A stretch of DNA of 46,054 bases from Escherichia virus ECH1. Shown in pieces: positions 289 through 46,014 of the stretch; position 1 is the stretch's first letter; every line of letters begins with the position of its first letter. The stretch is from sequence record MN164484.2, one strand, 5' to 3'. Below the pieces are notes generated by a model. The model made no database searches. It had not been told where the DNA came from and saw only the letters and a list, made by a program, of their open reading frames with translations. The position numbers and the translations under genes were made by a program.

Positions 289-527
289 ATGTCATCGGGC
301 ACGTTGATTCAAAATCCTATATTGCGCGCGACTTTTATTTATATATTAGCGGAAGGTATAGCACCACATTTAGGTCGGTTACAGCTGTCTACTCGGTTAC
401 ACCCGCAGGCATACAGGTGTCAGCAAAATATTTTGTGTACATTTTGAGTATACCGCTTGTCTACGCGTACTTGAGGTACTATAGTTATCTCACACCAAAG
501 AGAGGTGTCATTAAAAGGGTTATTTAA

Positions 528-1025: not shown

Positions 1026-1309
1026 TGATCGACTTCAACTTTGAAGTAACAAATCTGAGCCACGAAGAGATTGCTGAAATCGCAGAGAAGAATGGCAAGC
1101 CAGTTGAGTTAATCGCCGCGAATTATAACGGAATGCGCTGGGCTTTTGAGAATGGATACGATAATGACAAGCTAGCTGAAATCGCCAAGGAAAAGATTGC
1201 TAGCAAGAAGAAGATCAAGCCGTGGTACGAGAAGCACACTCGCACTGAATGGGAGGAAGCTATGGAGTTGTGGCAGTTAATGAAGAAGCTAAACAAATTG
1301 GTAAAATAG
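1025..1309 (+). CDS. hypothetical protein (94 aa)
   Basis: ORF start overlaps the upstream stop (ATGA-type coupling); stop TAG lies inside the conserved motif at 1305. Confidence 0.5.
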   Translation: MIDFNFEVTNLSHEEIAEIAEKNGKPVELIAANYNGMRWAFENGYDNDKLAEIAKEKIASKKKIKPWYEKHTRTEWEEAMELWQLMKKLNKLVK

Positions 1310-1349
1310 CACTTTTTGTTAAAACTCCATGGAGGGAGTTTGGCATAAT
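1305..1349 (+). promoter_or_regulatory. conserved promoter-like cassette (variant AATAGCACTTTTTGTTAAA plus -10-like CATAAT)
   Basis: Member of the repeated motif family; followed by RBS GAGAGGG and a small ORF at 1380. Confidence 0.45.
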
Positions 1350-1985: not shown

Positions 1986-2119
1986 TTTACATCCATACGT
2001 ACTATACAGGCAAGTTTAATAGCGTTAAGCATGTTCGCGTGCACGATAGCTACGATAGCGCAAAGGAGCAATGGCTAGTTCTAGGTGGTGACATTAATTC
2101 ATATAGAATCGCTGAATAG
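1982..2119 (+). CDS. hypothetical protein (45 aa)
   Basis: ATGA overlap with the upstream ORF; stop TAG embedded in the motif at 2115. Confidence 0.3.
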   Translation: MIYIHTYYTGKFNSVKHVRVHDSYDSAKEQWLVLGGDINSYRIAE

Positions 2120-2159
2120 CACGAATTGCTAAAACTGTATTGTGGTAATTTGATATAGT
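2115..2159 (+). promoter_or_regulatory. conserved promoter-like cassette (AATAGCACGAATTGCTAAA, 20 nt, TATAGT)
   Basis: Motif 2115-2133, -10-like TATAGT 2154-2159, leader CCATCAACAACGAGATGGAG, ATG at 2191. Confidence 0.55.
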
Positions 2160-2625: not shown

Positions 2626-2763
2626 ATGGACAACTACGAATTACCAAGCCAGTGGGCCAAAAGGATGATGTATGAAGCTAAGGACGGCAACGAGTCTACG
2701 GCATACTTTGAGCTTATGAACCTATGGAAAGAGCGAGAAGATAAAAATAGCACGAATAGCTAA
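2626..2763 (+). CDS. hypothetical protein (45 aa) with C-terminus NSTNS encoded by the motif
   Basis: ATG at 2626; last five codons and stop are the motif AATAGCACGAATAGCTAA. Confidence 0.35.
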   Translation: MDNYELPSQWAKRMMYEAKDGNESTAYFELMNLWKEREDKNSTNS

Positions 2764-2790
2764 ACGCAGTCGCCACGGCTGGCATATAAT
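2746..2790 (+). promoter_or_regulatory. conserved promoter-like cassette (AATAGCACGAATAGCTAAA, 20 nt, TATAAT)
   Basis: Motif 2746-2764; canonical TATAAT at 2785-2790; ATG at 2824. Confidence 0.5.
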
Positions 2791-3212: not shown

Positions 3213-3233
3213 ATTGGATTGTTAAAAAAGAGT

Positions 3234-3260
3234 TTGCATCACTGAGTGGAAGTATATAAT
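3234..3260 (+). promoter_or_regulatory. candidate sigma70-type promoter (TTGCAT, 15 nt, TATAAT) upstream of the tRNA
   Basis: Hexamers read directly; the short 15-nt spacer lowers confidence. Confidence 0.3.
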
Positions 3261-3486
3261 ATTAATCACGTAGACAGACGAGGCCACTAAGTGGCAACGG
3301 CGCACGGAGCGCAACTACTAAGTCCGTTGCTCATTAAGTAGCGTATGCGGCACACTTCCCAGTATGGGCTTTATCCCATTAGGGACTTGTAAGACCTAGA
3401 GCAAATAGGCAATCAAATCGGTCGTAACAGGCGACGCTGGAGCCGTAACTAGCAATCTTCATCTAGCAAGTCTAGCTAAAGATTAT

Positions 3487-3561
3487 GCTCTGTTAGCTTA
3501 ATGGAAAAAGCCGCAGCCTTCTAAGCTGTTGATGGTGGTTCGACTCCACCACGGAGCGCCA
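3487..3561 (+). tRNA. tRNA-Arg (anticodon TCT), CCA encoded
   Basis: Manual cloverleaf: acceptor GCTCTGT/ACGGAGC (one G-U), D-stem GCTT/AAGC, anticodon stem GCAGC/GCTGT, loop CTTCTAA with U33 and A37, T-arm GGTGG-TTCGACT-CCACC, discriminator G then CCA. Confidence 0.8.
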
Positions 3562-4400: not shown

Positions 4401-5969
4401 ATGTCTTTAGTGTGGGAAGAAATGACCATTCAGGAAAAGATGGCCGTCAAGGCGATATCAGAGCATAGTTTTGAGGGCTTTTTAAGGTGTTGGTTTTCAA
4501 TAACACAAGGCGAGCGATACATCCCTAACTGGCATCACAAGTATCTTTGCCGAATTATCGACGAGATTATTGCCGGGGAGCGCAAGGACACTATCATCAA
4601 CATAGCGCCCGGTAGCGGTAAGACAGAGATCGCTTCAATCCATTTCCCAGCCTACTCAATGGTTAAGCTGAAGAAGGTGCGAAACCTCAATATATCTTTT
4701 GCCGACTCACTGGTAAAGCGCAACTCCAAGCGCGTGCGTGACCTTATCAAGTCACCAGAATTTCAGTCGCTTTGGCCTTGCAAGTTTGGCACGTGCAAGG
4801 ACGATGAGCTTCAGGTTCTTGATGAGAGCGGGAAGGTTAGGTTTGAGTCAATATCAAAGGCGGCGGGAGGTCAGATTACTGGCGCTCGTGGTGGCTATAT
4901 AACCGAAACATATAGCGGGGCCGTCTTATTAGATGATTTTGACAAGCCCGCAGATATGCTATCAGCAGTCTACCGAGCAAATAACCATGTAATGCTAAAA
5001 AACACAATTCGCTCCCGTCGTGCGAGTTCTGTAAAGGGAAAGGCAACGCCAATCATTTCGATACAGCAGCGATTGCACGTTAATGACTCAACCTGGTTCA
5101 TGATGGAAGGTGGGATGGGTATCGAATTCGATTTGATTAAGATACCAGCGTTGGTAACTGAGGATTACCTAGACACACTACCTGAATGGATTAAAGAACA
5201 GTTTGAAGAGGATGTCCTTAGTAGTGAATACATAGAGCGCGATGGAGTAAGGTATTACAGCTACTTCCCTAAAAAGGAGTCAGTCAATGACTTGGTTGCG
5301 ATGTGGGATAGTGACCCTTACACCTTCCTTAGTCAGTATCAACAAGAACCAGTAGCTCTAGGTGGCAACCTTATTAACGTAGATTGGTTCCAGCGCCTTA
5401 GCGACACGTTCAGACCTCCCGCTAAGTACGATTATAGATTTATAACTTGCGATACAGCTATGACTACAAAAAGTTATAGTGACTTCTCTGTCCTTCAATT
5501 GTGGGGTTATAAAGATGCTAAGATTTACCTTATTGACCAGCGCAGGGGGAAATGGGAAGCGCCCGAGTTAGAGGCAGAGTTAATCGATTTCGAGAAGAAA
5601 TCAAGGGCAACCAGTCAATCGGATGGTATCCTCCGAAAGATTATCATCGAGAAGAAAGCATCTGGAATCGGACTCATTCAATCAGCAAGTCGAGTCATGA
5701 GAACGCCAGTGGAACCTTATGTTCCTGATAATGACAAGTTAACAAGGGTGATGAGTGCGCTGCCACAGATTAAGGCTGGTAACGTAGTTCTTCCTGAGTC
5801 TGCGCCGTGGTTAAGCGGATTGCTTACTGAGATTGCGGCATTTACCGCTGACGACAGCCACAATCACGACGACCAAATTGATACCATGACAATGGCTATC
5901 AACCTGGTTCTGAACATTGCGGATGATCCTAAGGCGAGACTGATGCGCATAGCGGGAAAAATGAAATAG
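4401..5969 (+). CDS. terminase large subunit
   Basis: 522 aa; P-loop-like GSGKT near the N-terminus; C-terminal acidic nuclease-like motifs (DDFD, HNHDDQIDT); position before portal. Confidence 0.85.
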   Translation: MSLVWEEMTIQEKMAVKAISEHSFEGFLRCWFSITQGERYIPNWHHKYLCRIIDEIIAGERKDTIINIAPGSGKTEIASIHFPAYSMVKLKKVRNLNISFADSLVKRNSKRVRDLIKSPEFQSLWPCKFGTCKDDELQVLDESGKVRFESISKAAGGQITGARGGYITETYSGAVLLDDFDKPADMLSAVYRANNHVMLKNTIRSRRASSVKGKATPIISIQQRLHVNDSTWFMMEGGMGIEFDLIKIPALVTEDYLDTLPEWIKEQFEEDVLSSEYIERDGVRYYSYFPKKESVNDLVAMWDSDPYTFLSQYQQEPVALGGNLINVDWFQRLSDTFRPPAKYDYRFITCDTAMTTKSYSDFSVLQLWGYKDAKIYLIDQRRGKWEAPELEAELIDFEKKSRATSQSDGILRKIIIEKKASGIGLIQSASRVMRTPVEPYVPDNDKLTRVMSALPQIKAGNVVLPESAPWLSGLLTEIAAFTADDSHNHDDQIDTMTMAINLVLNIADDPKARLMRIAGKMK

Positions 5970-6009
5970 CACAAATTGCTAAACACTAAAGACACGGATG
6001 GCGTATAGT
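5965..6009 (+). promoter_or_regulatory. conserved promoter-like cassette (AATAGCACAAATTGCTAAA, 20 nt, TATAGT)
   Basis: Motif begins inside the terminase stop codon; TATAGT 6004-6009; leader CACACAAACGAGAGGAG; ATG at 6039. Confidence 0.55.
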
Positions 6010-6427: not shown

Positions 6428-7684
6428 ATGGTAAAAACAGACAGCTACGCCAACATCTTTCTTGGCGGCAGTGACGGTAGTGAGATTTACGGAAGTTTAC
6501 AGAATCAGGCGCCTACAATTCTGGCTTCGCTTTATGTGGATAATGCACTTGTGCGTCGAATTATTGACACAATCCCAGAAACAGCATTGGCGGCAGGGTT
6601 CCATATTGATGGTATTGATGACGAACCTGCGTTCTGGTCGCGCTGGGATGATCTTGAGATGACGCAGAATATCAACGATGCCTGGTCATGGGCTCGGTTG
6701 TTCGGTGGTGCGGCAATTGTCGCTATCGTTAAGGACAATAGAGCGCTAACAAGTCCAGTCAGAGAGGGTGCTGAACTTGAAACGGTTCGTGTTTACGACC
6801 GCACGCAAGTGAAAGTGCAAAATCGCGAAGAGAATCCACGTAACGCACGCTTTGGTAAGCCTCTGACGTATCGCATCACCACTAACGAAAGCGATATGTT
6901 CTACGACGTGCACTACAGTCGCATTCACATTATCGATGGCGAGCGTGTACCTAACGCAATGCGTCGGCAAAATGATGGCTGGGGCCGTAGCGTTCTATCC
7001 AGTGACATTCTTGACTCAATTAAGGATTACACAAACTGCGAGCGACTCGCCACGCAATTACTTAGACGTAAACAGCAGGCGGTATGGAAGGCGAAAGGTC
7101 TGGCTGAGTTATGTGATGATAGCGAAGGGTTTGGCGCTGCAAGATTACGACTTGCGCAGGTTGACAACAATAGCGGCGTAGGTCAGGCGATTGGTATTGA
7201 TGCCGAATCTGAAGAGTATAGCGTTCTAAACTCTGACATTGGTGGGATTGATGCGTTCCTGGACAAGAAGTTTGACAGAATCGTAGCACTGAGCGGTATC
7301 CATGAAATCATCCTCAAGAACAAGAACGTTGGTGGCTTATCATCCAGTCAGAATACGGCGCTTGAGACATTCCACAAGCTGATTGACCGTAAGCGCAACG
7401 CTGAACTACTGCCCATTCTTGAGTTCTTAATACCGTTCATCGTAAACGCAGAAGAATGGTCAGTTGAGTTTAGCCCTCTAGCCCATGAGTCAAGCAAGGA
7501 TAAAGCGGAGGTTCTGGAGAAGAGCGTAAACAGCATCGCAGCACTAATTGCAGCCGGAGCTATGGATATCAACGAGGCACGTGATACACTACGCACTATC
7601 GCACCAGAGATTAAGATTGGTGATAATGATATTCAGACCGAGTACTCGGAGTTAATTACAGAGACGGAGGTTGTAATTGCGTAA
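6428..7684 (+). CDS. portal protein (putative)
   Basis: 418 aa, immediately downstream of the terminase large subunit; size and position. Confidence 0.75.
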   Translation: MVKTDSYANIFLGGSDGSEIYGSLQNQAPTILASLYVDNALVRRIIDTIPETALAAGFHIDGIDDEPAFWSRWDDLEMTQNINDAWSWARLFGGAAIVAIVKDNRALTSPVREGAELETVRVYDRTQVKVQNREENPRNARFGKPLTYRITTNESDMFYDVHYSRIHIIDGERVPNAMRRQNDGWGRSVLSSDILDSIKDYTNCERLATQLLRRKQQAVWKAKGLAELCDDSEGFGAARLRLAQVDNNSGVGQAIGIDAESEEYSVLNSDIGGIDAFLDKKFDRIVALSGIHEIILKNKNVGGLSSSQNTALETFHKLIDRKRNAELLPILEFLIPFIVNAEEWSVEFSPLAHESSKDKAEVLEKSVNSIAALIAAGAMDINEARDTLRTIAPEIKIGDNDIQTEYSELITETEVVIA

Positions 7685-9504: not shown

Positions 9505-10449
9505 ATGGCCATTAAATTTGATGCAGAACAAGCAAAAATCACCGCTCACCTCGAGCAAATGGGCGTAGAGAAAGCTGATGCCGCTGGTATCTGGACCGTT
9601 AAGCAGCTTACGGCTACTCTGAATCGCGCTTACGAAAAAGAATATGCGGACAACTCCGTTGTTAATATCTTCCCTGTAACCAATGAAATTCCTGGTCACG
9701 CGAAGTATTTCGAATATCCAGAATTTGATGGCGTTGGTATTGCTCAGATTATCGCTGATTACTCTGACGACCTGCCGCTGGTTGATGCTTTCATGACCGA
9801 GAAACAAGGCAAAGTTTTCCGTTTCGGTAACGCATTCCTGATTTCTACCGATGAAATTAAAGCTGGCGCTGCAACTGGTCAGTCTCTATCAACTCGCAAG
9901 CAAGCACTGGCTTTCGAAGCGCACGACAACCTGTTGGATAAACTGGTTTGGTCTGGTTCCACTCCTCACGGTATCGTAAGCGTATTCGATCAGCCTAACA
10001 TCAACAACGTTGTTGCAACGCCAAACTGGAGCGAGCCGCTTAACGCAATCAATGACGTAACCGCGATGATTGATGCAGTTGAGACTTCAACTCATGGTAT
10101 CCATCATGTGACTGATATTCTGCTTCCGGCATCCGCTCGTCGAGTAATGCAGCGCCTGGTTCCGAACACAACCCTGAGCTATGGTGAGTTGTTCACTCGT
10201 AACAACCCTGGCCTGACTATTCGTTTCCTGCAGTTCCTGGATAACTACGATGGCGCAGGTGGTAAAGCCGCTCTGGCGTTTGAGAAAAACCCGCTGAACA
10301 TGTCTATCGAGATTCCAGAAGCTACAAATGTACTTCCTGGTCAACCGAAAGATTTGCACTTTAAGTACCCGGTAACTTCTAAAGCGACAGGTTTGATTGT
10401 TTATCGTCCTCTTACGATGGCTGTAATCAAAGGAATCACCTTCGTGTAA
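9505..10449 (+). CDS. major capsid protein (putative)
   Basis: 314 aa in the expected head-module position, followed by a strong terminator; family not motif-verified. Confidence 0.7.
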   Translation: MAIKFDAEQAKITAHLEQMGVEKADAAGIWTVKQLTATLNRAYEKEYADNSVVNIFPVTNEIPGHAKYFEYPEFDGVGIAQIIADYSDDLPLVDAFMTEKQGKVFRFGNAFLISTDEIKAGAATGQSLSTRKQALAFEAHDNLLDKLVWSGSTPHGIVSVFDQPNINNVVATPNWSEPLNAINDVTAMIDAVETSTHGIHHVTDILLPASARRVMQRLVPNTTLSYGELFTRNNPGLTIRFLQFLDNYDGAGGKAALAFEKNPLNMSIEIPEATNVLPGQPKDLHFKYPVTSKATGLIVYRPLTMAVIKGITFV

Positions 10450-13124: not shown

Positions 13125-13169
13125 GATAGCACTTTTTGTTAAAGACTAAAAATCAAAATGCTGTATAGT
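13125..13169 (+). promoter_or_regulatory. conserved promoter-like cassette (GATAGCACTTTTTGTTAAA, 20 nt, TATAGT)
   Basis: Motif 13125-13143; TATAGT 13164-13169; leader ATCATCGAAACGAAATGAG; ATG 13202. Confidence 0.5.
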
Positions 13170-14174: not shown

Positions 14175-17162
14175 ATGGCAACAAATGAATTAGCCGGAAT
14201 CACACTAGCCGTAGATGTCTCGCAAGTAGACAGGGGCACGCAATCCCTGCAAAAGTTCAGGCAGGCAAACCAGCAAGCCGCTTCCGGAATTAGTGAATTC
14301 GTCAATGCTGAGCAGGTCGCAAAAGACCAAGCCAGAGACACGGCTCGCGCACTGGCTGAACAGCAAGCATCTTTAGCTAAATTGCAAACAGCTATTGACC
14401 CAACTGCGGCAAAGTTCCGTAAGCTGCAAGAGGCTGCTGTAGGTCTGGATAAGGCTTTCGCGGCTGGCGTAGTTCCTGATGAGGAGTTTTTCCGGTTAGG
14501 TGAGGCACTTGAAACTCAGAACGCAAAACTTGCTCGTTCACGTGCTGCGCTAACTGAAGAGGGAAGGGCTGCGGCGCAGGCTGCAAAGGATAAGGCAAAA
14601 GCAAAGGCTGAAGCTGACAGGTTCATTGCATCACTTGAGCGACAGGCTCAAGCGGCAACATTGACGCGTGAGGAGTACTTGAAGTTACAGGCTGCTCAGC
14701 TTGGCGTAAGCTCTCAGGCTGCACCCATCATTGACAGAATCGCCGACGCATCACAGAAGGCAAGCACCCAGTTAATCGCTCAGAGCAAGGCTTTTCAGCG
14801 CTCTGGCTTAAGCGCAGGTCAATACAAGAATGCCATATCTCAACTACCAGCGCAGATTACTGATATTGGCACGTCGCTTGCTGGAGGCATTCCGATTTGG
14901 CTTATTGCAATTCAGCAGGGTGGGCAGATCAAGGATGCATTTGGCGGTATTGGTAACACCTTTAGATTCGCGCTTGCAGCCTTAAACCCATTTAATGTAG
15001 CTGTTGGTGTTTTGGGTGGCGCACTTATTGCTCTTGGTGTTGGTGCAGCTCAGGCTGAAAGTGAATTCAGAGCATTAAACTCCGCAATTGCTTTCTCCAA
15101 CAACTCTACAATCGCATCAATCTCGCAGGTTAGAGAGTTGGTTAGCTCTGTTTCTGATGCAACAGGTGCTACCAGAGGACTTGTGACTAGCATCGCAACA
15201 AGCCTTATTGAGCAAGGGAACCTTACGCTGACGCAGATTGACAAGATTACTAAATCGACCGCAAGATGGGCGCAGTTGACAGGTAAGGATGCGAAGGAGA
15301 TTACTGGTTACTATAACCAGATTGCAAGCGACCCAATCCAGGGTTTAGTTGATTTGGATAAGCGCTTTAACTTCCTCACACAGGGGCAGTTGACGACAAT
15401 CGAAAACCTGAGAAAGACAAAGGGAGAAGTTGAGGCCGTTACTGCTGCGATTGATATTTTCAGCAAGTCTCAGGAAGCCAACCTTAACGACATAGCTGCG
15501 CAGTTAACTCCGCTTGAGCTAGCCTGGAATGATTTCAGAAAGTACATCTCTGATATCTGGGATGCAATTAGTCGTAGAACGGTCGGGGCGCTGAACCTAT
15601 TTGTTGACGTAATCGCCGGAACGATTGAACAGATCAGGGTATTCATTAACCAGGGTGATGTTCTGATTGGTGAATTCGTAATTAGCGCAACTCAGGCATT
15701 GCAGAACATTCCTGGTCTTGATGGCGTTGGTGATGATGTTATCAAGGGGCAGCAGAAGATTATCGATGCCGCCAAGAAGCAAAACCTTGAGCTAGAGAAG
15801 TCTATCAAGGAGCGAGATGCCAGAATCAGAGAGGGAGAGCTTGGTTACGTTACTCGCAGAGAAAATCAGAATACCAATGAGCAGTCAGGTACTGATGAGG
15901 AATTTGCAAAAAGGAAGAAGGCGCTTCAGGATGAGCTTGATGCGATCAAGAAGAACAGGAAAGAAGAAAATAGTAGGGTTAAGGAGCAAAGAGATTTAAC
16001 AATTGGTTATGAATCTGGCGTTCTGGCGCTTCAGGCTCAACTCAAGGTGCTTCAGGAAAACAGGGATATTGGCGCAGTAATAAGCAATGAGCGCAAACAG
16101 TATCTTCAGGAGGAGGCCAAATTCAGGATTCTTGAGCAGAGACAACTTGATGGCTCAATTACCAAAGAGCAAGCAAGACTTCTCATTGAAAAGGATAAAG
16201 TTCTTGAGTTAGCCAGACAGAAGGCTGAGCTAGGTGATCAGATTGTTTTGCAGGAGCGAGCTAATAAGTTAGCTGAAGATAACCGCAAGAAGATTCTTCA
16301 GATTAACAATGAGGCAAGTAACATTGATTTGGGTGCTGGTTTATCATCTCGCGAGCAGCAGAGAGCAAAAGAGATTCAGGCTCTTCAATCCAATCAGGTT
16401 AATGCTGGTGGTTCTGTTGATGATGTTGATTTTCAGCAACTTCTCGAAGCAAGAAAGAAATGCTATGCTCAGGAGGATGCGCATACGTGCAACTGGCTCG
16501 CTGGCGTAACAACAAATCTTGCTACCTGGGCTCAGAGCGCGACGGAATGCACTCAAATTGCTGGAAGTTTCACCACGACAGTCTTTGAAGGTATTACAGA
16601 CCAGATTACAAACCTTGTATCCACTGGTGAGACGAACTTCAGGGATTTTACTGTTAGCATCCTTAAGCAGATTGCTAAGATTGCAACCCAGCTTCTTTTT
16701 GTTAAGGCTATTGAGTCTAGCTTATGTAGCTTCGGTGGTGGTGGCGCTAATGCATTTGGTTCGATTGCATCTGGTTTTGGGTTCGCTACCGGCGGTTACA
16801 CTGGGGATGGTGGGAAGTATCAGCCAGCCGGTACGCTGCATCGTGGAGAGTTTGTATTCACAAAAGAAGCGACAAGCCGAATTGGTGTTAAGAACCTTTA
16901 CGCACTGATGAAAGGTTACGCAAACGGCGGAGCGGTTGGTGGTCCATCTGGTTATTCTGGTGGTGGTTTGGTTTCTGGAGGATCAGATGTTAATGTTAGC
17001 GGTATCACTGTTAACGTTAATGGTGGCGTTGGTAGCGACCCAGAGCAAGCAAAGGCGTTGCAAAACGGCGTTAAGGCCATCGTAGCGGAAGAGATTGCGC
17101 AGTCTTTCCAGCAGGGTGGGCGTGCTTATGCTTACCTTCGCGGATTCAACTACTACCACTAA
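14175..17162 (+). CDS. tail tape measure protein
   Basis: 995 aa, coiled-coil Ala/Gln/Lys-rich, hydrophobic central segments, Gly-rich C-terminus; position after chaperones. Confidence 0.9.
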   Translation: MATNELAGITLAVDVSQVDRGTQSLQKFRQANQQAASGISEFVNAEQVAKDQARDTARALAEQQASLAKLQTAIDPTAAKFRKLQEAAVGLDKAFAAGVVPDEEFFRLGEALETQNAKLARSRAALTEEGRAAAQAAKDKAKAKAEADRFIASLERQAQAATLTREEYLKLQAAQLGVSSQAAPIIDRIADASQKASTQLIAQSKAFQRSGLSAGQYKNAISQLPAQITDIGTSLAGGIPIWLIAIQQGGQIKDAFGGIGNTFRFALAALNPFNVAVGVLGGALIALGVGAAQAESEFRALNSAIAFSNNSTIASISQVRELVSSVSDATGATRGLVTSIATSLIEQGNLTLTQIDKITKSTARWAQLTGKDAKEITGYYNQIASDPIQGLVDLDKRFNFLTQGQLTTIENLRKTKGEVEAVTAAIDIFSKSQEANLNDIAAQLTPLELAWNDFRKYISDIWDAISRRTVGALNLFVDVIAGTIEQIRVFINQGDVLIGEFVISATQALQNIPGLDGVGDDVIKGQQKIIDAAKKQNLELEKSIKERDARIREGELGYVTRRENQNTNEQSGTDEEFAKRKKALQDELDAIKKNRKEENSRVKEQRDLTIGYESGVLALQAQLKVLQENRDIGAVISNERKQYLQEEAKFRILEQRQLDGSITKEQARLLIEKDKVLELARQKAELGDQIVLQERANKLAEDNRKKILQINNEASNIDLGAGLSSREQQRAKEIQALQSNQVNAGGSVDDVDFQQLLEARKKCYAQEDAHTCNWLAGVTTNLATWAQSATECTQIAGSFTTTVFEGITDQITNLVSTGETNFRDFTVSILKQIAKIATQLLFVKAIESSLCSFGGGGANAFGSIASGFGFATGGYTGDGGKYQPAGTLHRGEFVFTKEATSRIGVKNLYALMKGYANGGAVGGPSGYSGGGLVSGGSDVNVSGITVNVNGGVGSDPEQAKALQNGVKAIVAEEIAQSFQQGGRAYAYLRGFNYYH

Positions 17163-18089: not shown

Positions 18090-18845
18090 ATGCTGAGTCC
18101 TAAGTTTCAGAATCAGTTGCATAGCCTTTTCCCAGGCGAGATTGTGACACTAATTCAGGTTCACGGGACCTCATTCGGAAGTCTCGTTTACAACTTCCAT
18201 AATGAGAACATATCTTACACACCTGAAGAAATCCTGCTGGCCCAACTGAATGGCGATCCACTACCAGAGAAAACCATCACCTTCCGCGGCGAAGAGTATG
18301 GCCCAAGACCATTTGGTATCTCTGGTATCAATATGACTTCTGACGGCAAGGCTAACAAGGTCACGTTAACGGTATCAAACGTGGACCAGCGCATTAGCGC
18401 ATTGATTCGCACATATAACGGACTTGTTAAGGCAAAGGTTACTATCTGGATCACCACGCGCGATAACATCAATGAAGACGGAAGCATTGCTGACGGGGAC
18501 TATCGCAGATTTGTTTACTTCATTGAGCGACCAAAGCAAGTTGATTACAAAACCGCATCATTTGAGCTAAGCAGCCCGATGGATATGGACGGAATTTATA
18601 TTCCTGCACGTCTTGTTCAGTCCGTTTGCTATTGGTCGTCAAGGGGGTGGTATCGTAGCGGTAATGGTTGCGACTATGCTGGCAATCGTTATTTTGACAA
18701 GGATGACAATCCAGTGTCAGACCCTTCACTTGACTTCTGCGCCGGAACGGTAAATAGCTGTAAGATTAGGTTTGGTGAGAATAATCAGATTTCATTTGGT
18801 GGGTGCGCAGCAGCGAGCCTTCAAGCTAAAGCTAATCAGAGTTAA
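18090..18845 (+). CDS. minor tail protein (lambda gpL-like)
   Basis: ATG 18090 with RBS GGAG; Cys-rich C-terminus (CYWSS...CDYAG...C...C) typical of gpL. Confidence 0.7.
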   Translation: MLSPKFQNQLHSLFPGEIVTLIQVHGTSFGSLVYNFHNENISYTPEEILLAQLNGDPLPEKTITFRGEEYGPRPFGISGINMTSDGKANKVTLTVSNVDQRISALIRTYNGLVKAKVTIWITTRDNINEDGSIADGDYRRFVYFIERPKQVDYKTASFELSSPMDMDGIYIPARLVQSVCYWSSRGWYRSGNGCDYAGNRYFDKDDNPVSDPSLDFCAGTVNSCKIRFGENNQISFGGCAAASLQAKANQS

Positions 18846-18889
18846 ATAGCACGAATTGCTAAAGACGATTTAAAAAGATGGGGTATAGT
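18845..18889 (+). promoter_or_regulatory. conserved promoter-like cassette (AATAGCACGAATTGCTAAA, 20 nt, TATAGT)
   Basis: Motif 18845-18863; TATAGT 18884-18889; leader CCCAATCGAAACGAGAGGAG; ATG 18912. Confidence 0.55.
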
Positions 18890-18911
18890 TACCCAATCGA
18901 AACGAGAGGAG

Positions 18912-19274
18912 ATGAAAAAAATGTTCCAAATTAAATTTAACGGATACAAAAAAGACAAAGAAGAGTGCGCTGGTTTGTTTTTCATTGGCCACAATTACCC
19001 CTGCAGTGTTGTTGACTCAAACAGACACTATCAGACGCAGGATGAGAATGGCAATATTGTAAAGTTTAAAAGTATTTTCCGTGATGCTTGTTACGACTTT
19101 TCAAGAATTGATACTCAGAGCAAGGTATTAGACGAGCATGATAACAAGATGAAATATCGAATGAATGGTGTTGATGTCACTAAGTCATTCTTTGATGATA
19201 AGCTACTGGAAGTTGAGATGCTTAAATCAATAGATGTTTCAGTATTTATAGATTTTGAGGTTTATTTTGAATAA
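18912..19274 (+). CDS. moron, paralog of 6039-6370 (120 aa)
   Basis: Own promoter-like cassette and terminator; N-terminus FNGYKK and C-terminus IDFEVYFE match the 6039 gene. Confidence 0.5.
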   Translation: MKKMFQIKFNGYKKDKEECAGLFFIGHNYPCSVVDSNRHYQTQDENGNIVKFKSIFRDACYDFSRIDTQSKVLDEHDNKMKYRMNGVDVTKSFFDDKLLEVEMLKSIDVSVFIDFEVYFE

Positions 19275-25356: not shown

Positions 25357-25392
25357 GTTCCTTAGAATGTGTGTTTCGTTTTGATGGAGTAA

Positions 25393-25436
25393 TCATATCT
25401 TAACTGTTAGGTTTGTCTTTAGCTATTCGTGCTATT
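25393..25436 (-). promoter_or_regulatory. conserved promoter-like cassette on the minus strand (AATAGCACGAATAGCTAAA, TATGAT)
   Basis: Reverse complement of 25418-25436; leader CCATCAAAACGAAACAC; drives the lipoprotein operon. Confidence 0.5.
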
Positions 25437-25724
25437 CAACCATCTGTTATATTTATCCCTCTCCTTGATTGCCTTTTCAAGTGACTTGAATCTTAAAAGT
25501 AGCGGCATACAGTCAACACCCATAATTAAGGATTCGTCGCAGCTATTTGCGCCAGTCAGCCAAAGAGAGAAGTATTGTTGGTCGAGGCCGTAGTTCCTGT
25601 CTTTATTGACCCTAACGCTAACAACTTTAAATTTTAAACCAGCCAACTTAACCTTATCTATAAATTCTGACTTTTTCAGCTTGTTGCTCCTTTTTAGTTT
25701 ACCTGGAAATGGTACATCACCCAT
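25419..25724 (-). CDS. hypothetical protein (about 100 aa) ending in NSTNS encoded by the motif
   Basis: ATG at 25724 lies 10 nt after the minus-strand motif at 25735-25753; last codons are the next motif copy. Confidence 0.3.
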   Translation of the reverse strand: MGDVPFPGKLKRSNKLKKSEFIDKVKLAGLKFKVVSVRVNKDRNYGLDQQYFSLWLTGANSCDESLIMGVDCMPLLLRFKSLEKAIKERDKYNRWLNSTNS

Positions 25725-25734
25725 GAGATTTGTC

Positions 25735-25753
25735 TTCAGCAATTAGTGCTATT
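25735..25753 (-). promoter_or_regulatory. motif copy on the minus strand (AATAGCACTAATTGCTGAA)
   Basis: Read as reverse complement; too close to the ATG to be a standard promoter. Confidence 0.35.
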
Positions 25754-27583: not shown

Positions 27584-27626
27584 ATAGCACGAATTGCTAA
27601 AAAAAATGGGATATCTGAGGTATAGT
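27583..27626 (+). promoter_or_regulatory. conserved promoter-like cassette (AATAGCACGAATTGCTAAA, 19 nt, TATAGT)
   Basis: Motif begins in the exonuclease stop codon; TATAGT 27621-27626; leader CCCATCAACAGCAAACGAGG. Confidence 0.55.
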
Positions 27627-32096: not shown

Positions 32097-32115
32097 AATA
32101 GCACGAATTGCTAAA
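32097..32115 (+). promoter_or_regulatory. motif copy between primase and tail fibre genes (operator-like)
   Basis: Palindrome centre only about 32 nt from the tail-fibre ATG, which is incompatible with the usual motif-to-start geometry. Confidence 0.35.
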
Positions 32116-32134
32116 GTGGATTGTAGCATCTTTA

Positions 32135-32161
32135 GGGCATAAAAAAACCTCCCGAAGGAGG
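32135..32161 (-). terminator. rho-independent terminator after primase (CCTCC-TTCG-GGAGG plus T7)
   Basis: Hairpin plus T-run read on the minus strand. Confidence 0.6.
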
Positions 32162-33088: not shown

Positions 33089-33158
33089 ATGCACCTCCAT
33101 AAACAATAAAGGCACTATACATAATGTAGAGTGCCAATGTTTATCAAATCGTGCTTTT

Positions 33159-33650
33159 TTACTCTGCTTCTCTCTTTTTCTTATTCTCTTCTTTAATCTT
33201 ACGCCATGATCTGGCAGGCGGCTTTGTTGCTAACTCCTCTTTCTTAACAACTCTAAGCATTTCTCGACGGTCACAACGCAATGTTAAAGGCTTACCATTA
33301 CTATCAAATCGAAGGTCTGGACGAATGAAGCTAGCTCGATAACCCTCGCCTGTACGCTTGTACTTACCGTGTAATTTCTGCGCACCTTTAGCTGAAATCA
33401 TTCCGCGTTTACACCATTCAGAAACTACTGCATGTGTCACATTAGCGGCTTTTGCTAGCTTCGATTTACCACCATAAAAATCAAGTACAATCTCAAGTCT
33501 GGCGCGTAAACTAGCTCTCACCTCATCCTTCAAAGTGTAGTAGCCATAAGGTCGACTACGTTCTTTCTTGTCTTCACCGCGCTGAGTTCCGTTATTACCA
33601 TTTAATGTGCGCTTGTCTACTTCACCAGTTGATGCCGCAATTCTCGTCAT
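33159..33650 (-). CDS. helix-turn-helix DNA-binding protein
   Basis: HTH-like segment SKLAKAANVTHAVVSEWCKRGMIS; basic Lys/Arg-rich C-terminus; divergent from the helicase. Confidence 0.5.
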   Translation of the reverse strand: MTRIAASTGEVDKRTLNGNNGTQRGEDKKERSRPYGYYTLKDEVRASLRARLEIVLDFYGGKSKLAKAANVTHAVVSEWCKRGMISAKGAQKLHGKYKRTGEGYRASFIRPDLRFDSNGKPLTLRCDRREMLRVVKKEELATKPPARSWRKIKEENKKKREAE

Positions 33651-33661
33651 TATCAATCTCC

Positions 33662-33705
33662 AATAGCACTTTTTGTTAAAAGTCGTTTTGATTTAGTGTT
33701 AGTAT
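33662..33705 (+). promoter_or_regulatory. conserved promoter-like cassette (AATAGCACTTTTTGTTAAA) upstream of the helicase
   Basis: Motif 33662-33680; the -10 is less clear (TAGTAT-like). Confidence 0.4.
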
Positions 33706-33750
33706 TGTACTCAACAAAACGCCACAACACAAATTAATAGGGCTTAACAA

Positions 33751-35746: not shown

Positions 35747-36166
35747 ATGAAGATTACAGATAAAGAAGATTACATTGAGTTTTACCCGGGTGCTGTAAAA
35801 TCATGTCCAAAGGAGGATGACGAACAAATCTTTTGCTCTGATTGGGTTAAGTACCATTATCCGCAGATTGTTTACTGGCACACGATTAATGAAAATAAGA
35901 AGACCATAGGGCAAGCAAGAAAAGACCAGGCGAAAGGACTCCTTAAGGGCGTATCAGACTGCTTATTCCTGATACCTGAATCAATGCGAGGCAAATACCC
36001 TTTTGGAGCCATAGAGCTAAAGAGGGCAGGAAAAACTCAAGCAAGCCCTGTTAGCGATGAACAAAAGGTTTTCTTAAAAAGCGTAAGGGAATCAGGCGGT
36101 TTCTCTGCTGTAGCCTACGGTCGCGAAGGTTTTCTTGCAGCATTCAAAGAAATGATTTCAAAATAG
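35747..36166 (+). CDS. VRR-NUC domain nuclease
   Basis: GVSDCLFLIPE...AIELKRAG resembles the D-x(n)-E-x-K VRR-NUC signature. Confidence 0.55.
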   Translation: MKITDKEDYIEFYPGAVKSCPKEDDEQIFCSDWVKYHYPQIVYWHTINENKKTIGQARKDQAKGLLKGVSDCLFLIPESMRGKYPFGAIELKRAGKTQASPVSDEQKVFLKSVRESGGFSAVAYGREGFLAAFKEMISK

Positions 36167-36206
36167 CACGAATTGCTAAAGAAGATTTTAAAAGATGGGG
36201 TATAGT
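36162..36206 (+). promoter_or_regulatory. conserved promoter-like cassette (AATAGCACGAATTGCTAAA, 20 nt, TATAGT)
   Basis: Motif begins in the VRR-NUC stop; TATAGT 36201-36206; leader CTCCATCGAAACGAAACG. Confidence 0.55.
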
Positions 36207-37202: not shown

Positions 37203-37247
37203 AATAGCATTTTTTGTTAAAACTAAAATCCACGGATGGATTATATT
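37203..37247 (+). promoter_or_regulatory. conserved promoter-like cassette (AATAGCATTTTTTGTTAAA, TATATT)
   Basis: Motif family member; ATG at 37278 follows. Confidence 0.4.
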
Positions 37248-37985: not shown

Positions 37986-39122
37986 ATGGCAACTGCAAAA
38001 ATTACCAACGAACAGCTTCTTGAAGAGCTGATTAACGGCATGACCAACAAGGCCATTGCAGAGAAGTACGGAATGAACATTCGCAATGTTGAGTTGCGTC
38101 GCAGTAAATTGGCGAAGCAGGGTGAAGGGCATGGAAACCCAGGCATCAAGAAGCTAGTTCCTGACGGTTATTTGGTCAAAGGCACATCAACGATGATTGA
38201 TGCCGAAGGTAACGAAAAGCTGCGCTGGGTTAAAACATCCGTAGATAATGAGCGCCTTGAGGTTTTAATGGAGCAAGCTCGAGAAGCATTCTGCTCTGAT
38301 TTGCCAAAGGCTATTCCATCTGAATCACCGAATGTTAACTTTGATGACAACACGCTTGCGATGTATCCAGTCTTTGACTTGCACATTGGAGCAATGGCTC
38401 ACAAACATGAGTGTGGCGAAAACTACGACACAGCAACAGCAGAGAAGGTTATGAATGGTTTCTTTGACTACGCTGTAGATAAGGCTCCGAACTCAAAGAA
38501 TGCCGTGCTTGTTCTTGGTGGTGATTTCTTGCATTACGATTCATTAGAGGCAAAAACACCAGCGTCAGGCCATATCTTAGATTCTGACAGCCGTTACGCA
38601 AAGATTGTTTATGTCGCAATCCGTTCAGTGCGACGTGCAATTTCTAGAATGATGGAAAAGCATCAAGTTATTGATATTAAAGTAATAAGTGGAAACCACG
38701 ACGAGGCAGGGATGGTTTGGCTGCGCGCTGCGCTTGCTGCGTTTTATGAAGATGAACCGCGCGTAAATGTTGATGTTAGCCCAGCCGCAATGATGATGAC
38801 CAGCTTTGGAACTACGCTTATTGGATACACCCACGGGCATCAAATGCGAAAAGCAGATACGCGACTAACTGTTATGGCAACCGATTTTCGTAAGTTATTT
38901 GGTCAAAGTGAGTATGTTTACACACATAGTGGTCACTGGCATTCGCAGAAGATTACAGAAACAAACTTGGGTATTGATGAGGTTCATGGGCAGCTTGGAA
39001 GCCCTGACGCGTACTCAGCAAATGGCGGATGGCGCTCTCAACGTCAAGCGGCGGTTATTGTCTACCATAAAGAATTCGGTGAAGTTGGCCGCTTCATTTG
39101 TCGCCCTAAAATGTTTGGATAA
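37986..39122 (+). CDS. metallophosphoesterase (calcineurin-like) with N-terminal HTH-like segment
   Basis: Motifs LVLGGDFLHYD, GNHDE, HGHQ, HSGHWH. Confidence 0.6.
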   Translation: MATAKITNEQLLEELINGMTNKAIAEKYGMNIRNVELRRSKLAKQGEGHGNPGIKKLVPDGYLVKGTSTMIDAEGNEKLRWVKTSVDNERLEVLMEQAREAFCSDLPKAIPSESPNVNFDDNTLAMYPVFDLHIGAMAHKHECGENYDTATAEKVMNGFFDYAVDKAPNSKNAVLVLGGDFLHYDSLEAKTPASGHILDSDSRYAKIVYVAIRSVRRAISRMMEKHQVIDIKVISGNHDEAGMVWLRAALAAFYEDEPRVNVDVSPAAMMMTSFGTTLIGYTHGHQMRKADTRLTVMATDFRKLFGQSEYVYTHSGHWHSQKITETNLGIDEVHGQLGSPDAYSANGGWRSQRQAAVIVYHKEFGEVGRFICRPKMFG

Positions 39123-39139
39123 TAGCACATTTTGTTAAA
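39121..39139 (+). promoter_or_regulatory. motif copy (AATAGCACATTTTGTTAAA) followed by hairpin GCCGCGAAAGCGGC
   Basis: Motif overlaps the phosphoesterase stop; precedes the HNH-AP2 gene. Confidence 0.4.
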
Positions 39140-39193
39140 ACAGTAGCCGCGAAAGCGGCTATTATTGTTTTATACAAACGGGAGGGGATTTAA

Positions 39194-39688
39194 ATGGATT
39201 GGAATGATTTTCTTGAGTATAGAGATGGCAGGCTTTACTGGACTGGCCCGCATTCAACAAAACTCAAGCCAGGTGATGAGGCTGGCAGCAGTCACCATAG
39301 GTGTTATTGGTACATTCGCAGATATGACAAAACAATGTCAAGGCACAGAATCGTATGGGAGATGCACAACGGACCAATACCAGAAGGCATGGAGATAGAT
39401 CATATAAATCACGCCCCTGTTGATGACAGGATTGAAAACCTAAGAATGGTCACAAGAAGGCAAAACAATCAAAACAAGAAATTAGATGGAAGAAATACAA
39501 GCGGACACGTCGGGGTCAGCTGGAACAAGAAGACAAACAAATGGAGAGCAATGATAGGCATAAAGGGAGAGGACGGAAAGAGGAAAACTCTATACGTTTA
39601 CTATGGTGATTCTTTCGATGACGCAGTGTCAGCAAGAAAGAGAGCTGAGGTTGAGTACTCATTTCACGAAAATCACGGAAGAAGCTAG
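39194..39688 (+). CDS. HNH-AP2 homing endonuclease (intact)
   Basis: HNH motif HRIVWEMHNG...IDHINH...NRIENLRMV followed by AP2-like SGHVGVSWNKKTNKWRAMIG...YYGDSFDDAVSARKRAE. Confidence 0.75.
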   Translation: MDWNDFLEYRDGRLYWTGPHSTKLKPGDEAGSSHHRCYWYIRRYDKTMSRHRIVWEMHNGPIPEGMEIDHINHAPVDDRIENLRMVTRRQNNQNKKLDGRNTSGHVGVSWNKKTNKWRAMIGIKGEDGKRKTLYVYYGDSFDDAVSARKRAEVEYSFHENHGRS

Positions 39689-39735
39689 AAATAGCACTTT
39701 TTGCCTAAAGCATGCCGTATAAATGCGGCATAATT
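39689..39735 (+). promoter_or_regulatory. conserved promoter-like cassette (AATAGCACTTTTTGCCTAAA, CATAAT)
   Basis: Leader CCACATCGAAACGAGATGAGG; ATG 39765. Confidence 0.5.
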
Positions 39736-40240: not shown

Positions 40241-40795
40241 ATGACTAAATTATTTATCCTTAATGGCCCCGCTGGAGTTGGTAAGGATACTATAGCGGAT
40301 ATCATGGTTGAGACTGGTGTCGCCAAAGAAAAGGTATCATTCAAGTCACCAATGTTTAACGTTGCTAGAGGCATTCTTTCAATAGATGAATTCGATTGGT
40401 TTATTGAAAACTACAACAATCGCGACGAGAAGGAGAAACATCAGAAAATTCTAGGTGGAAAAAGCATTCGAGAGTTCATGATCTGGATTAGCGAGTCTGT
40501 AATGAAGCCAGTCTTTGGTGATGATGTTTTTGGTAAAAGGCTCGCCCAATCACTTAGTGATGGTTGCTACATTTGCGCTGACGGTGGATTTGCTAGCGAG
40601 ATTAAGCCACTGATCGACGCTGGTGTTGAGGTCACGTTAATCAGATTGCATAGGGCTGGGCACACATTTGATGGAGATAGTCGCTCATACATTCACGGGG
40701 TGTGCGCAAGAGAAATTGATGTTCGTGTTGTTGGTGGTGATATTGATGGAACATCAGCATTGGTAAGGCACGTAATAAATAGCACTAACTGCTAA
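40241..40795 (+). CDS. P-loop nucleotide kinase (dNMP kinase / polynucleotide kinase-like)
   Basis: Walker A GPAGVGKDT near the N-terminus; ATG 40241 with RBS GGAG; C-terminus NSTNC encoded by the motif. Confidence 0.55.
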   Translation: MTKLFILNGPAGVGKDTIADIMVETGVAKEKVSFKSPMFNVARGILSIDEFDWFIENYNNRDEKEKHQKILGGKSIREFMIWISESVMKPVFGDDVFGKRLAQSLSDGCYICADGGFASEIKPLIDAGVEVTLIRLHRAGHTFDGDSRSYIHGVCAREIDVRVVGGDIDGTSALVRHVINSTNC

Positions 40796-40821
40796 AGATA
40801 ATAATAAAAACTGAGTTATCA
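40778..40821 (+). promoter_or_regulatory. conserved promoter-like cassette (AATAGCACTAACTGCTAAA, TATCAT)
   Basis: Leader CACATCGAAACGAGCTGAAAC; ATG 40864. Confidence 0.5.
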
Positions 40822-40863
40822 TTAACACATCGAAACGAGCTGAAACAAACGAGGAAACACAAG

Positions 40864-44787: not shown

Positions 44788-44832
44788 ATAATACCGTATC
44801 TCACATAAATGCTTTTAGCAATTCGTGCTATT
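44788..44832 (-). promoter_or_regulatory. conserved promoter-like cassette on the minus strand (AATAGCACGAATTGCTAAA, TATTAT)
   Basis: Leader TCCATCGAGACGGGAGATGAG; ATG at 44761. Confidence 0.5.
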
Positions 44833-45968: not shown

Positions 45969-46014
45969 AGTATACGCACATCGATTCAATATGTCTTTAG
46001 CCAAAAGTGCTATT
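45969..46014 (-). promoter_or_regulatory. conserved promoter-like cassette on the minus strand (AATAGCACTTTTGGCTAAA, 21 nt, TATACT)
   Basis: Read as reverse complement; followed by an untranslated leader of about 210 nt. Confidence 0.45.

Follow-up and report, generated by a model that had tools for sequence, protein, structure and literature searches.

What reads the repeat that stands at position 18845 of the Escherichia virus ECH1 sequence (MN164484.2), just ahead of an accessory gene? The element has the form AATAGCAC-N3-TTGCTAAA and occurs in 19 copies in the 46,054-bp window, by which we mean the whole stretch of DNA that was analysed. A sequence-only reading had described it as a genome-wide palindrome for a dimeric regulator, of phage or host origin, that would control early or moron genes from class II activator-type promoters. 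Our analysis retains that promoter geometry, replaces the palindrome with an oriented and asymmetric site, and suggests that the phage borrows the host regulators MarA, SoxS and Rob to switch on its genes. The window is closely akin, as a variant, to Escherichia phage vB_EcoS_ACG-M12 (Drexlerviridae, Braunvirinae, Guelphvirus), which is alike in gene order and length and 96.9% identical (megablast with a 6-kb query), with differences mostly in the 13-18 kb tail region.

The repeat is strongly overrepresented and nearly always part of a larger arrangement. The 19-mer AATAGCACNNNTTGCTAAA, allowing up to three mismatches, matches the window 19 times against 0.67 +/- 0.80 in shuffled sequences, and the strict palindrome TAGCA-N5-TGCTA is found eight times against 0.04 expected. 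All positions given in the sequence-only reading were recovered, one of them shifted from 39689 to 39690, together with an unlisted weak extra copy at 33140(-). When all copies are aligned, a single shared module emerges, co-oriented with the flanking genes in 18 of 19 cases, in which the 19-mer is followed by 20 nt of free sequence, a hexamer resembling TATAGT or TATAAT, TAnnnCA, an A-rich leader (ATCGAAACGAG in the best copies), a Shine-Dalgarno sequence (SD) and a start codon. The distance from 19-mer to hexamer is exactly 20 nt in 16 of the 19 window copies, 19 nt in two and 21 nt in one. A -10 at 19-21 nt had been claimed for most copies, and the claim extends to relatives: across 84 related phage loci with 383 unique sites, the best -10 lies at this distance in 338 sites and at exactly 20 nt in 252. 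Two copies depart from the module. The one at 32097(+) has only CATAAA, 22 nt after the 19-mer, and opposes its flanking genes, and the doubtful one at 25735(-) has TACCAT as its -10, with the annotated start codon of the next gene inside the spacer. Two subtypes coexist in the window, a palindromic one (CGAAT-TGCTA) and a non-palindromic one (CTTTT-TGTTA). The genes under these promoters are not the early or moron set that had been proposed; they make up most transcription units, including those for packaging, head, tail, recombination, replication and the lysis region.

An alignment of 430 unique sites, with conserved positions numbered from G1 of the core, yields the block A-A-T/c-A-G-C-A-C-n-W-W-T-T-G-C/t-T-A-A-A, and its conserved positions do not obey a dyad. 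Position 4 is C (87%), and the base opposite, position 8, is T (94%) where a dyad would have G; opposite A at -2 stands another A, at position 14; and G1 is invariant (100%) whereas its dyad partner, position 11, is C in 58% and T in 36% of sites. Two-fold symmetry is confined to a 5-bp arm and is present in about half of the sites, and together with the fixed orientation this speaks against the palindrome as the operator of a dimeric regulator. The same picture comes from sites for whose selection only the left half was used (ATAGCAC, with TAnnnT at the proper distance; 179 sites in 84 loci), in which the right half reads n-W-W-T-T-G-Y-Y-A-A-A, with C (58%) or T (36%) at position 11, T (91%) or C (7%) at position 12 and exclusively A or T at positions 6 and 7.

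These conserved and degenerate positions are those of a known host element. The E. coli marbox consensus derived from chromatin immunoprecipitation sequencing, 5'-GCAHWWWWTGYYAAA-3' (Kettles et al., 2019; PMC6900184), applied unchanged with at most one mismatch, finds the same sites, with 18 window matches against 1.78 +/- 1.28 expected. The agreement is complete (15/15) at six window sites and 14/15 at most others; by subtype, CTTTTTGTTAAA scores 15/15 and CGAATTGCTAAA 14/15. An older 20-mer consensus, AYnGCACnnWnnRYYAAAYn, which Martin et al. are said to have proposed in 1999, has 15 matches in the window where 1.08 are expected, and its "AY" positions, which lie outside the 15-mer search pattern, are conserved as well (A in 92% of sites, Y in 97%, with T 77% and C 20%). 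The pair of helix-turn-helix (HTH) motifs of MarA reads CAC(G/T) and AAA, seven bases apart (PMC8811837), and the phage sites have CACG-N7-AAA. Because both the asymmetry and the degeneracy (Y, W) are conserved as in the E. coli marbox, we take the repeat to be a marbox and not a dyad, and judging from these alignments it is probably the upstream half of the phage's standard promoter.

The position of the element within the promoter agrees with this assignment. Class II marboxes lie in the forward orientation, overlap the -35 region and cluster about 41 bp upstream of the start; their promoters have no recognisable -35 and a normal -10, and the proteins that bind them are monomers on a non-palindromic, oriented site (PMC12052159; PMC10268841; PMC8811837). 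In the phage, the -10 lies on the AAA side of the element, the 20-bp marbox is separated from it by 18 bp in 16 of 19 window sites and by 18 bp within +/-1 bp in 338 of 383 unique sites, and the marbox centre falls at about -40.5 from the start predicted at the conserved CA 7 nt past the -10. The class II activator-type geometry first proposed for the repeat, with the site centred at about -40 to -42, is therefore kept. The -10 hexamers of the window copies match the canonical sequence at 4-6 of six positions (most at 5-6), while the best -35 match at 16-18 bp from the -10 reaches 2-4 of six. TTGCTA lies 22 bp from the -10 and therefore cannot serve as a sigma70 -35, as the sequence-only reading had noted; no -10 is found 17 bp from it. 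In E. coli K-12, micF has the same layout, with ACAGCACTGAATGTCAAAAC, 18 bp and TAGAAT, and an annotated RNA 5' end 8 nt further on; sodA has ACGGCATTGATAATCATTTT, 18 bp and TATAAT, its box assigned by consensus match. We consider it likely, from layout and consensus, that the phage sites are class II marbox promoters built as those of micF and sodA.

Compared with class II marbox promoters of the host (micF, sodA, lpxC P2, lpxL P1, rfaY P1), the phage sites are alike in their asymmetric, degenerate and forward marbox, its overlap with the -35 region, the 18 bp to a canonical -10, the absent -35 and the centre near -41. They differ in density, with about 19 per 46 kb, in lying far closer to consensus, and in driving genes for structure, replication and accessory functions where the host promoters drive stress genes. 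The phage shows no excess of canonical sigma70 promoters (39 found against 44 expected in 20 kb); sites matching at least 10 of 12 positions number six in the whole window, one of them intergenic. Inspection by eye found three promoters with a real -35, those of gene 1, the tRNA-Arg region and gp49 (Table 1).

Could host RNA polymerase use these promoters unaided? A near-consensus -10 and a G at -14 would then suffice, and the conserved block would be a UP-like element, a contact for the C-terminal domain of the polymerase alpha subunit (alpha-CTD) or for sigma region 4, or serve some other role at the level of DNA. The -10 hexamers are indeed strong, 67% of sites have G at -14, and T1-like phages thrive in unstressed cells with low MarA-family activity. 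The block, however, is 19 bp long, almost totally conserved family-wide and held at a fixed helical phase, unlike the A/T-rich UP elements; it places TTGCTA too far from the -10, and it fits a known activator site position by position. We regard polymerase acting alone as very improbable.

The module is shared by T1-like phages, as the search of their genomes proposed in the sequence-only reading brought out. Rtp has 20 copies (at most three mismatches) at orthologous positions, EC3a has 18 and T1 has 23 against 0.58 expected; in 80 IMG/VR loci recovered through a gp49 homologue the motif occurs at 0.1-0.6 copies/kb with at most two mismatches; and in Klebsiella-type relatives the copies read AATAGCACTTTTTGTTAAA, 20 nt, TATTAT and TAccCCATCGAAACGA. 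From T1, Rtp and EC3a to the Klebsiella-type relatives, the motif does not change. At orthologous sites the sequence of the spacer varies freely, and may even host a terminator hairpin, whereas its length is constant; the subtype, palindromic or not, is not strictly kept between T1 and the window. Among the matches listed in a scan of viral contigs for the module, all are T1-like contigs of 41-53 kb. In T1, two marboxes in the structural-gene region, at 15069-15087(-) and 18833-18851(-), are flipped relative to the genes. On the antisense strand each has a -10-like hexamer 20 nt further on (TATACA and TAAGAT), and antisense promoters are thus predicted before the major head and tail chaperone genes. 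The tail copy of the window, at 13125, is in sense orientation, unlike T1.

The sequence-only reading had named an HTH protein, gp49, as one candidate regulator, and the idea has a history. Wietzorrek et al. reportedly described, in their 2006 paper on the Rtp genome, ten conserved inverted repeats upstream of genes and proposed Rtp52, the gp49 homologue, as their regulator. The Rtp repeats are the same motif at orthologous positions; the repeat appears to have been observed already in 2006 and was reportedly read then as a dyad operator in 10 copies, where we find the asymmetry, orientation and spacing of a marbox. On such a reading gp49 would first be made from its own sigma70 promoter, and a gp49 dimer would then recognise the TAGCA-N5-TGCTA dyad near -42, activate all these promoters and regulate itself through the copy in its own leader. 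The protein is a plausible one for the task. Pfam gives weak matches to Cro/CI/YdaS HTH domains, and the AlphaFold model has a confident all-alpha Cro fold (predicted local distance difference test score, pLDDT, of 86) whose best matches in the PDB are Xfaso1, N15 and P22 Cro; homologues are conserved in 828 phage records, all T1-like. Its gene has its own -35/-10 promoter, which in Klebsiella-type relatives is as good as TTGTCA-16-TATAAT, and a reversed marbox lies within the leader, between promoter and SD, in every relative examined, a classic autoregulation layout that would give a coherent early-to-later cascade. Eight window copies, moreover, are perfect 5+5 palindromes.

Several features of the sites speak against gp49 as their reader. 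Their conserved positions are asymmetric and strictly oriented, and in about 40% of sites the dyad is broken by T in place of C at position 11, with the partner G always constant. Orientation is fixed in 18 of 19 window copies, and the flipped copies of T1 carry their own -10 at 20 nt, which is not the indifference to orientation of a dyad operator. Among gp49 homologues, at 50-70% identity, positions 2, 4, 6 and 7 of the recognition helix vary freely and the motif is shared unchanged, whereas conservation holds at helix positions 1, 3, 5 and 8 and in the basic residues on its flanks. It is also very unlikely that an unrelated operator would by chance match the marbox consensus (about 25 bits) together with the 18-bp spacing and the orientation. 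With its Cro fold gp49 stands as a possible regulator and a less likely one, its recognition helix varying while the motif does not, and as the activator of all these promoters we consider it unlikely; it may modulate them or act elsewhere. Also in its favour, the gp49 and helicase promoters have -10s that overlap on opposite strands (window 33700-33732; around 9850-10000 in related loci), a layout that resembles a divergent switch with mutually exclusive states. The most conserved part of gp49 is residues 10-50, DKRTxNGNNGTxRGxDKKxRKRPxGYYVLKDEV, which is predicted to be disordered (pLDDT 53-62); the N-terminal 30 residues are likewise disordered in the model and yet highly conserved, and this arm may contact DNA or polymerase.

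The two regulators could also share the sites, with a MarA-family protein activating from the marbox and gp49 competing for the palindromic subset (the CGAATTGCTA type) to modulate or time expression. The coexistence of two subtypes, the position of a marbox between the overlapping gp49 and helicase -10s, and the conservation of the orphan copy at 32097 without a matching -10 would all suit such an arrangement, which is set back by the loose conservation of subtype between orthologous positions of T1 and the window. We think this double use, too, quite improbable.

The likeliest binders, in our estimate, are the host's monomeric AraC-family proteins MarA, SoxS and Rob (with RamA in Klebsiella and Salmonella), not a dimer, a view that we hold with some confidence on the strength of the motif and its layout. 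Marbox-binding factors have been reported in many enteric bacteria, and since phages of Escherichia, Klebsiella and other enteric hosts carry the motif unchanged, a conserved host reader is the simple explanation and the host activators are its likeliest candidates. The phage offers no evident substitute: a phmmer search with MarA against all six-frame open reading frames (ORFs) found no homologue (best E = 2.3), and Pfam found no AraC-type domain in ten window ORFs without assigned function. A host MarA-family protein would place one helix on GCAC and its second on TGYTAAA; once bound, it would contact sigma70 region 4 and the alpha-CTD and so bring host RNA polymerase to a promoter with a -10 alone. 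Transcription would start at the conserved CA about 7 nt past the -10, giving a transcript with an unstructured A-rich leader and a strong SD. We infer activator binding, start sites and the extent of activator dependence from the sequence.

A number of observations weigh against a marbox read by host activators. Position 19 (Y) of the older consensus is unmatched, the phage having A or G there, and at position 0, where the consensus has n, 91% of sites have A, an extra conservation that a marbox does not explain. Without inducer most Rob is locked up in inactive aggregates, and unstressed cells have little MarA or SoxS, yet T1-like phages grow fast in ordinary broth. Fast growth would have to come from near-consensus sites that need little activator, from activation triggered by infection, from basal activity of the -10 and G at -14, or from another reader. 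The Cro-like protein and the reversed motif in its leader, found in every relative, fit an autoregulating phage factor equally well. Finally, the exact module (marbox, 20 nt, TATNNT) was not found in the bacterial chromosomes scanned, where the matches were chance-level singletons in unrelated taxa and one phage contig; the phage module is therefore an idealised form and not a copy of a host promoter. This 46.7-kb contig, NZ_VSMK01000220.1 (46,669 bp, labelled Nitratidesulfovibrio liaohensis, from a sulfate-reducer assembly), has five phage-type marbox promoters and is almost certainly a contaminating T1-like coliphage genome.

Other systems share parts of this architecture. T4 middle promoters also have a good -10, no -35 and a box in its place, with a superficially similar TGCT core. 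The T4 MotA box is centred at -30 and read by the phage protein MotA, with AsiA remodelling sigma70; the box described here is centred near -41, and we noticed no MotA- or AsiA-like genes. Lambda PRM with cI at OR2 and the class II sites of CRP and FNR are alike in their overlap with the -35 region and their centre near -42 (-41.5/-42), whereas they are true dyads for dimers and the phage motif is asymmetric and oriented. A sigma54 promoter (TGGCAC-N5-TTGC) resembles the repeat in its letters (AGCAC...TTGC) and was rejected, the phage having AG-N8-GC where GG-N10-GC is required, with GC-GC 2 bp short and a sigma70 -10 following. Lrp, whose consensus we take to be YAGHAWATTWTDCTR, would fit the arms of the repeat; the marbox fits every position better, and gp49 is Cro-like, not AsnC-like, despite its Lrp/AsnC size. 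CCCCAT near the start site recalls sigma32 and lacks TTGAAA at the right distance. An RNA hairpin is too weak (folds of -4.6 and -1.3 kcal/mol, z of -2.3 and -0.1), and the element lies upstream of its own start site.

At the locus that raised the question, the 19-mer as first described spans 18845-18863 and opens with an A that also ends the TAA stop codon of the upstream gene. After TATAGT come tacccAATCGAAACGAG, GAGGAG and ATG, with the SD at 18905-18911. An ATG had been described after the ribosome-binding site; an SD followed by a start codon is there, and the likelier start is 18921, as in GenBank, not 18912. The gene that follows is, however, an accessory insert in the tail module; the gene is absent in EC3a, and in Rtp an HNH endonuclease gene takes its place. 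The components of this promoter and of the other copies are given in Table 1.

Table 1. Candidate marbox promoters and associated features of the window, by position; lengths in bp are spacers between the 20-bp marbox and the -10, and promoter assignments are predictions.
Feature	Position	Strand	Remarks
Gene 1 promoter	457-485		TTGTCT-17-TATAGT; without marbox
Putative marbox promoter	1306..1349	+	ATAGCACTTTTTGTTAAAAC, 18 bp, CATAAT
Putative marbox promoter	2116..2159	+	18 bp, TATAGT
Putative marbox promoter	2747..2790	+	TAGCTAAA variant, TATAAT
tRNA-Arg region promoter	3233-3260		TTTGCA-16-TATAAT
Putative marbox promoter	5966..6009	+	After terminase large subunit gene, upstream of head genes
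Putative marbox promoter	13126..13169	+	Directly past major tail protein terminator
20-bp marbox	18846..18865	+	ATAGCACGAATTGCTAAAGA; RE1 GCAC 18849-18852, RE2 TGCTAAA 18857-18863
18-bp spacer	18866..18883	+	Sequence free, length fixed; best -35 match 3/6
-10 hexamer	18884..18889	+	TATAGT; preceded by G at -14
Predicted start and A-rich leader	18895..18920	+	AATCGAAACGAGAGGAG; start A predicted at 18895/18896, 7 nt past -10
Downstream accessory gene	18921..19274	+	No Pfam match; between two minor tail protein genes
Putative marbox promoter	25392..25435	-	TATGAT; lipoprotein / DUF6453 operon
Doubtful copy	25709..25752	-	TGCTGAA, -10 TACCAT; annotated start codon in spacer
Putative marbox promoter	27584..27626	+	17 bp; upstream of Erf-type recombinase gene
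Orphan marbox	32098..32143	+	Antisense to flanking primase and tail-fibre genes; CATAAA 20 bp past 20-mer
Weak marbox-like copy	33114..33157	-	AAAGCACGATTTGATAAACA, TATAGT; upstream of primase gene
gp49	33159..33650	-	Cro-fold HTH, Rtp52 / T1 gp23 homologue; candidate regulator of the sequence-only reading
Putative helicase gene marbox promoter	33663..33705	+	15/15 core consensus match, -10 TAGTAT
gp49 sigma70-type promoter	33704..33732	-	TTGTGT-17-TACAAT; -10 overlaps helicase -10 on other strand; reversed marbox in gp49 leader
Putative marbox promoter	36163..36206	+	TATAGT
Putative marbox promoter	37204..37247	+	GCAT variant, TATATT
Putative HNH endonuclease gene marbox promoter	39122..39165	+	Terminator-like hairpin GCCGCGAAAGCGGC in spacer
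Putative polynucleotide kinase gene marbox promoter	39691..39734	+	TGCCTAA variant, CATAAT
Putative marbox promoter	40779..40822	+	TATCAT
Putative marbox promoter	44788..44831	-	TATTAT; in leftward small-gene cluster
Putative marbox promoter	45969..46013	-	19 bp, TATACT; head of leftward small-gene cluster

The modules are tightly fitted among the genes. Stop codons of upstream genes overlap the marbox, as TAG inside AATAGCAC, as TAA inside GCTAAA or directly before the motif (1307-1309, 2117-2119, 5967-5969, 18843-18845, 36164-36166, 37205-37207, 2761-2763 and 40793-40795), an extreme packing of coding and regulatory sequence. GC-rich hairpins, some with T runs and thus terminator-like, lie inside the 18-bp spacer between marbox and -10 in the window (39142-39163), in Rtp (2377-2394) and in Klebsiella-type loci (at 7459(-) in one of them), so that the upstream operon's terminator and the promoter after it occupy a common stretch of ~45 bp. 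Genes for HNH homing endonucleases and other accessory inserts carry their own marbox promoter (window 39122-39688; Rtp 6315 and 21392), which suggests that the promoter module travels with mobile gene cassettes.

The orphan marbox sits between the primase terminator and the tail-fibre gene, and is also found in Rtp (33761), EC3a (32077) and T1 (34901). On the minus strand it follows an extended -10-like TGcTACAAT by 4 nt, and a factor bound there could stand in the way of tail-fibre transcription; from CATAAA/TATAAA on the plus strand, the marbox could drive a short antisense RNA. Elsewhere in the window, the region 3233-3486 consists of the sigma70-type promoter and then about 220 nt without a listed ORF of at least 40 aa, followed by tRNA-Arg(TCT) at 3487-3561; Rfam matched only the tRNA, and the stretch before it may belong to the leader of a tRNA precursor or be a small RNA that has escaped recognition. 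The left end (1-480) is AT-rich and largely non-coding, contains tattattattattattatatatat (about 250-275) and is a possible site of pac or replication signals.

T1 is one of the original T phages, and to our knowledge its promoters have never been defined. In the GenBank records and genome papers of T1-like phages that we examined, promoters come from generic sigma70 predictors or are left unannotated; the papers on ACG-M12, Rogue1, AHP24, SU57 and vB-EcoS-95 use generic promoter predictors only and do not describe the repeat, and a literature search combining marbox with phage or bacteriophage found no paper that links them. Class II marbox activation is well known, and its use by a virulent phage family for nearly all of its promoters would be new and surprising. 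We give about even chances to a broader proposal, in which the Drexlerviridae, T1 included, hand nearly all promoter recognition to host MarA, SoxS, Rob or RamA through some 20 idealised class II marboxes per genome; their expression would be tuned by bile, antibiotic and oxidative stress of the host, and hundreds of replicating genomes would act as a sponge, drawing the activators away from the promoters of host defence and efflux.

If the marbox reading is true, it would explain how unmodified host polymerase transcribes a phage almost without canonical promoters, and it would offer synthetic biology a source of compact, near-consensus class II marbox promoters. It would also tie phage growth to the regulators of multidrug efflux and porins, and bear on phage-antibiotic combinations and on conditions in the gut, where bile activates Rob. 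Mutants of marA, soxS and rob (or ramA), and conditions that affect these regulators, would then alter susceptibility to the T1-like phages of E. coli, Klebsiella, Salmonella and their relatives, of which more than 800 have been sequenced.

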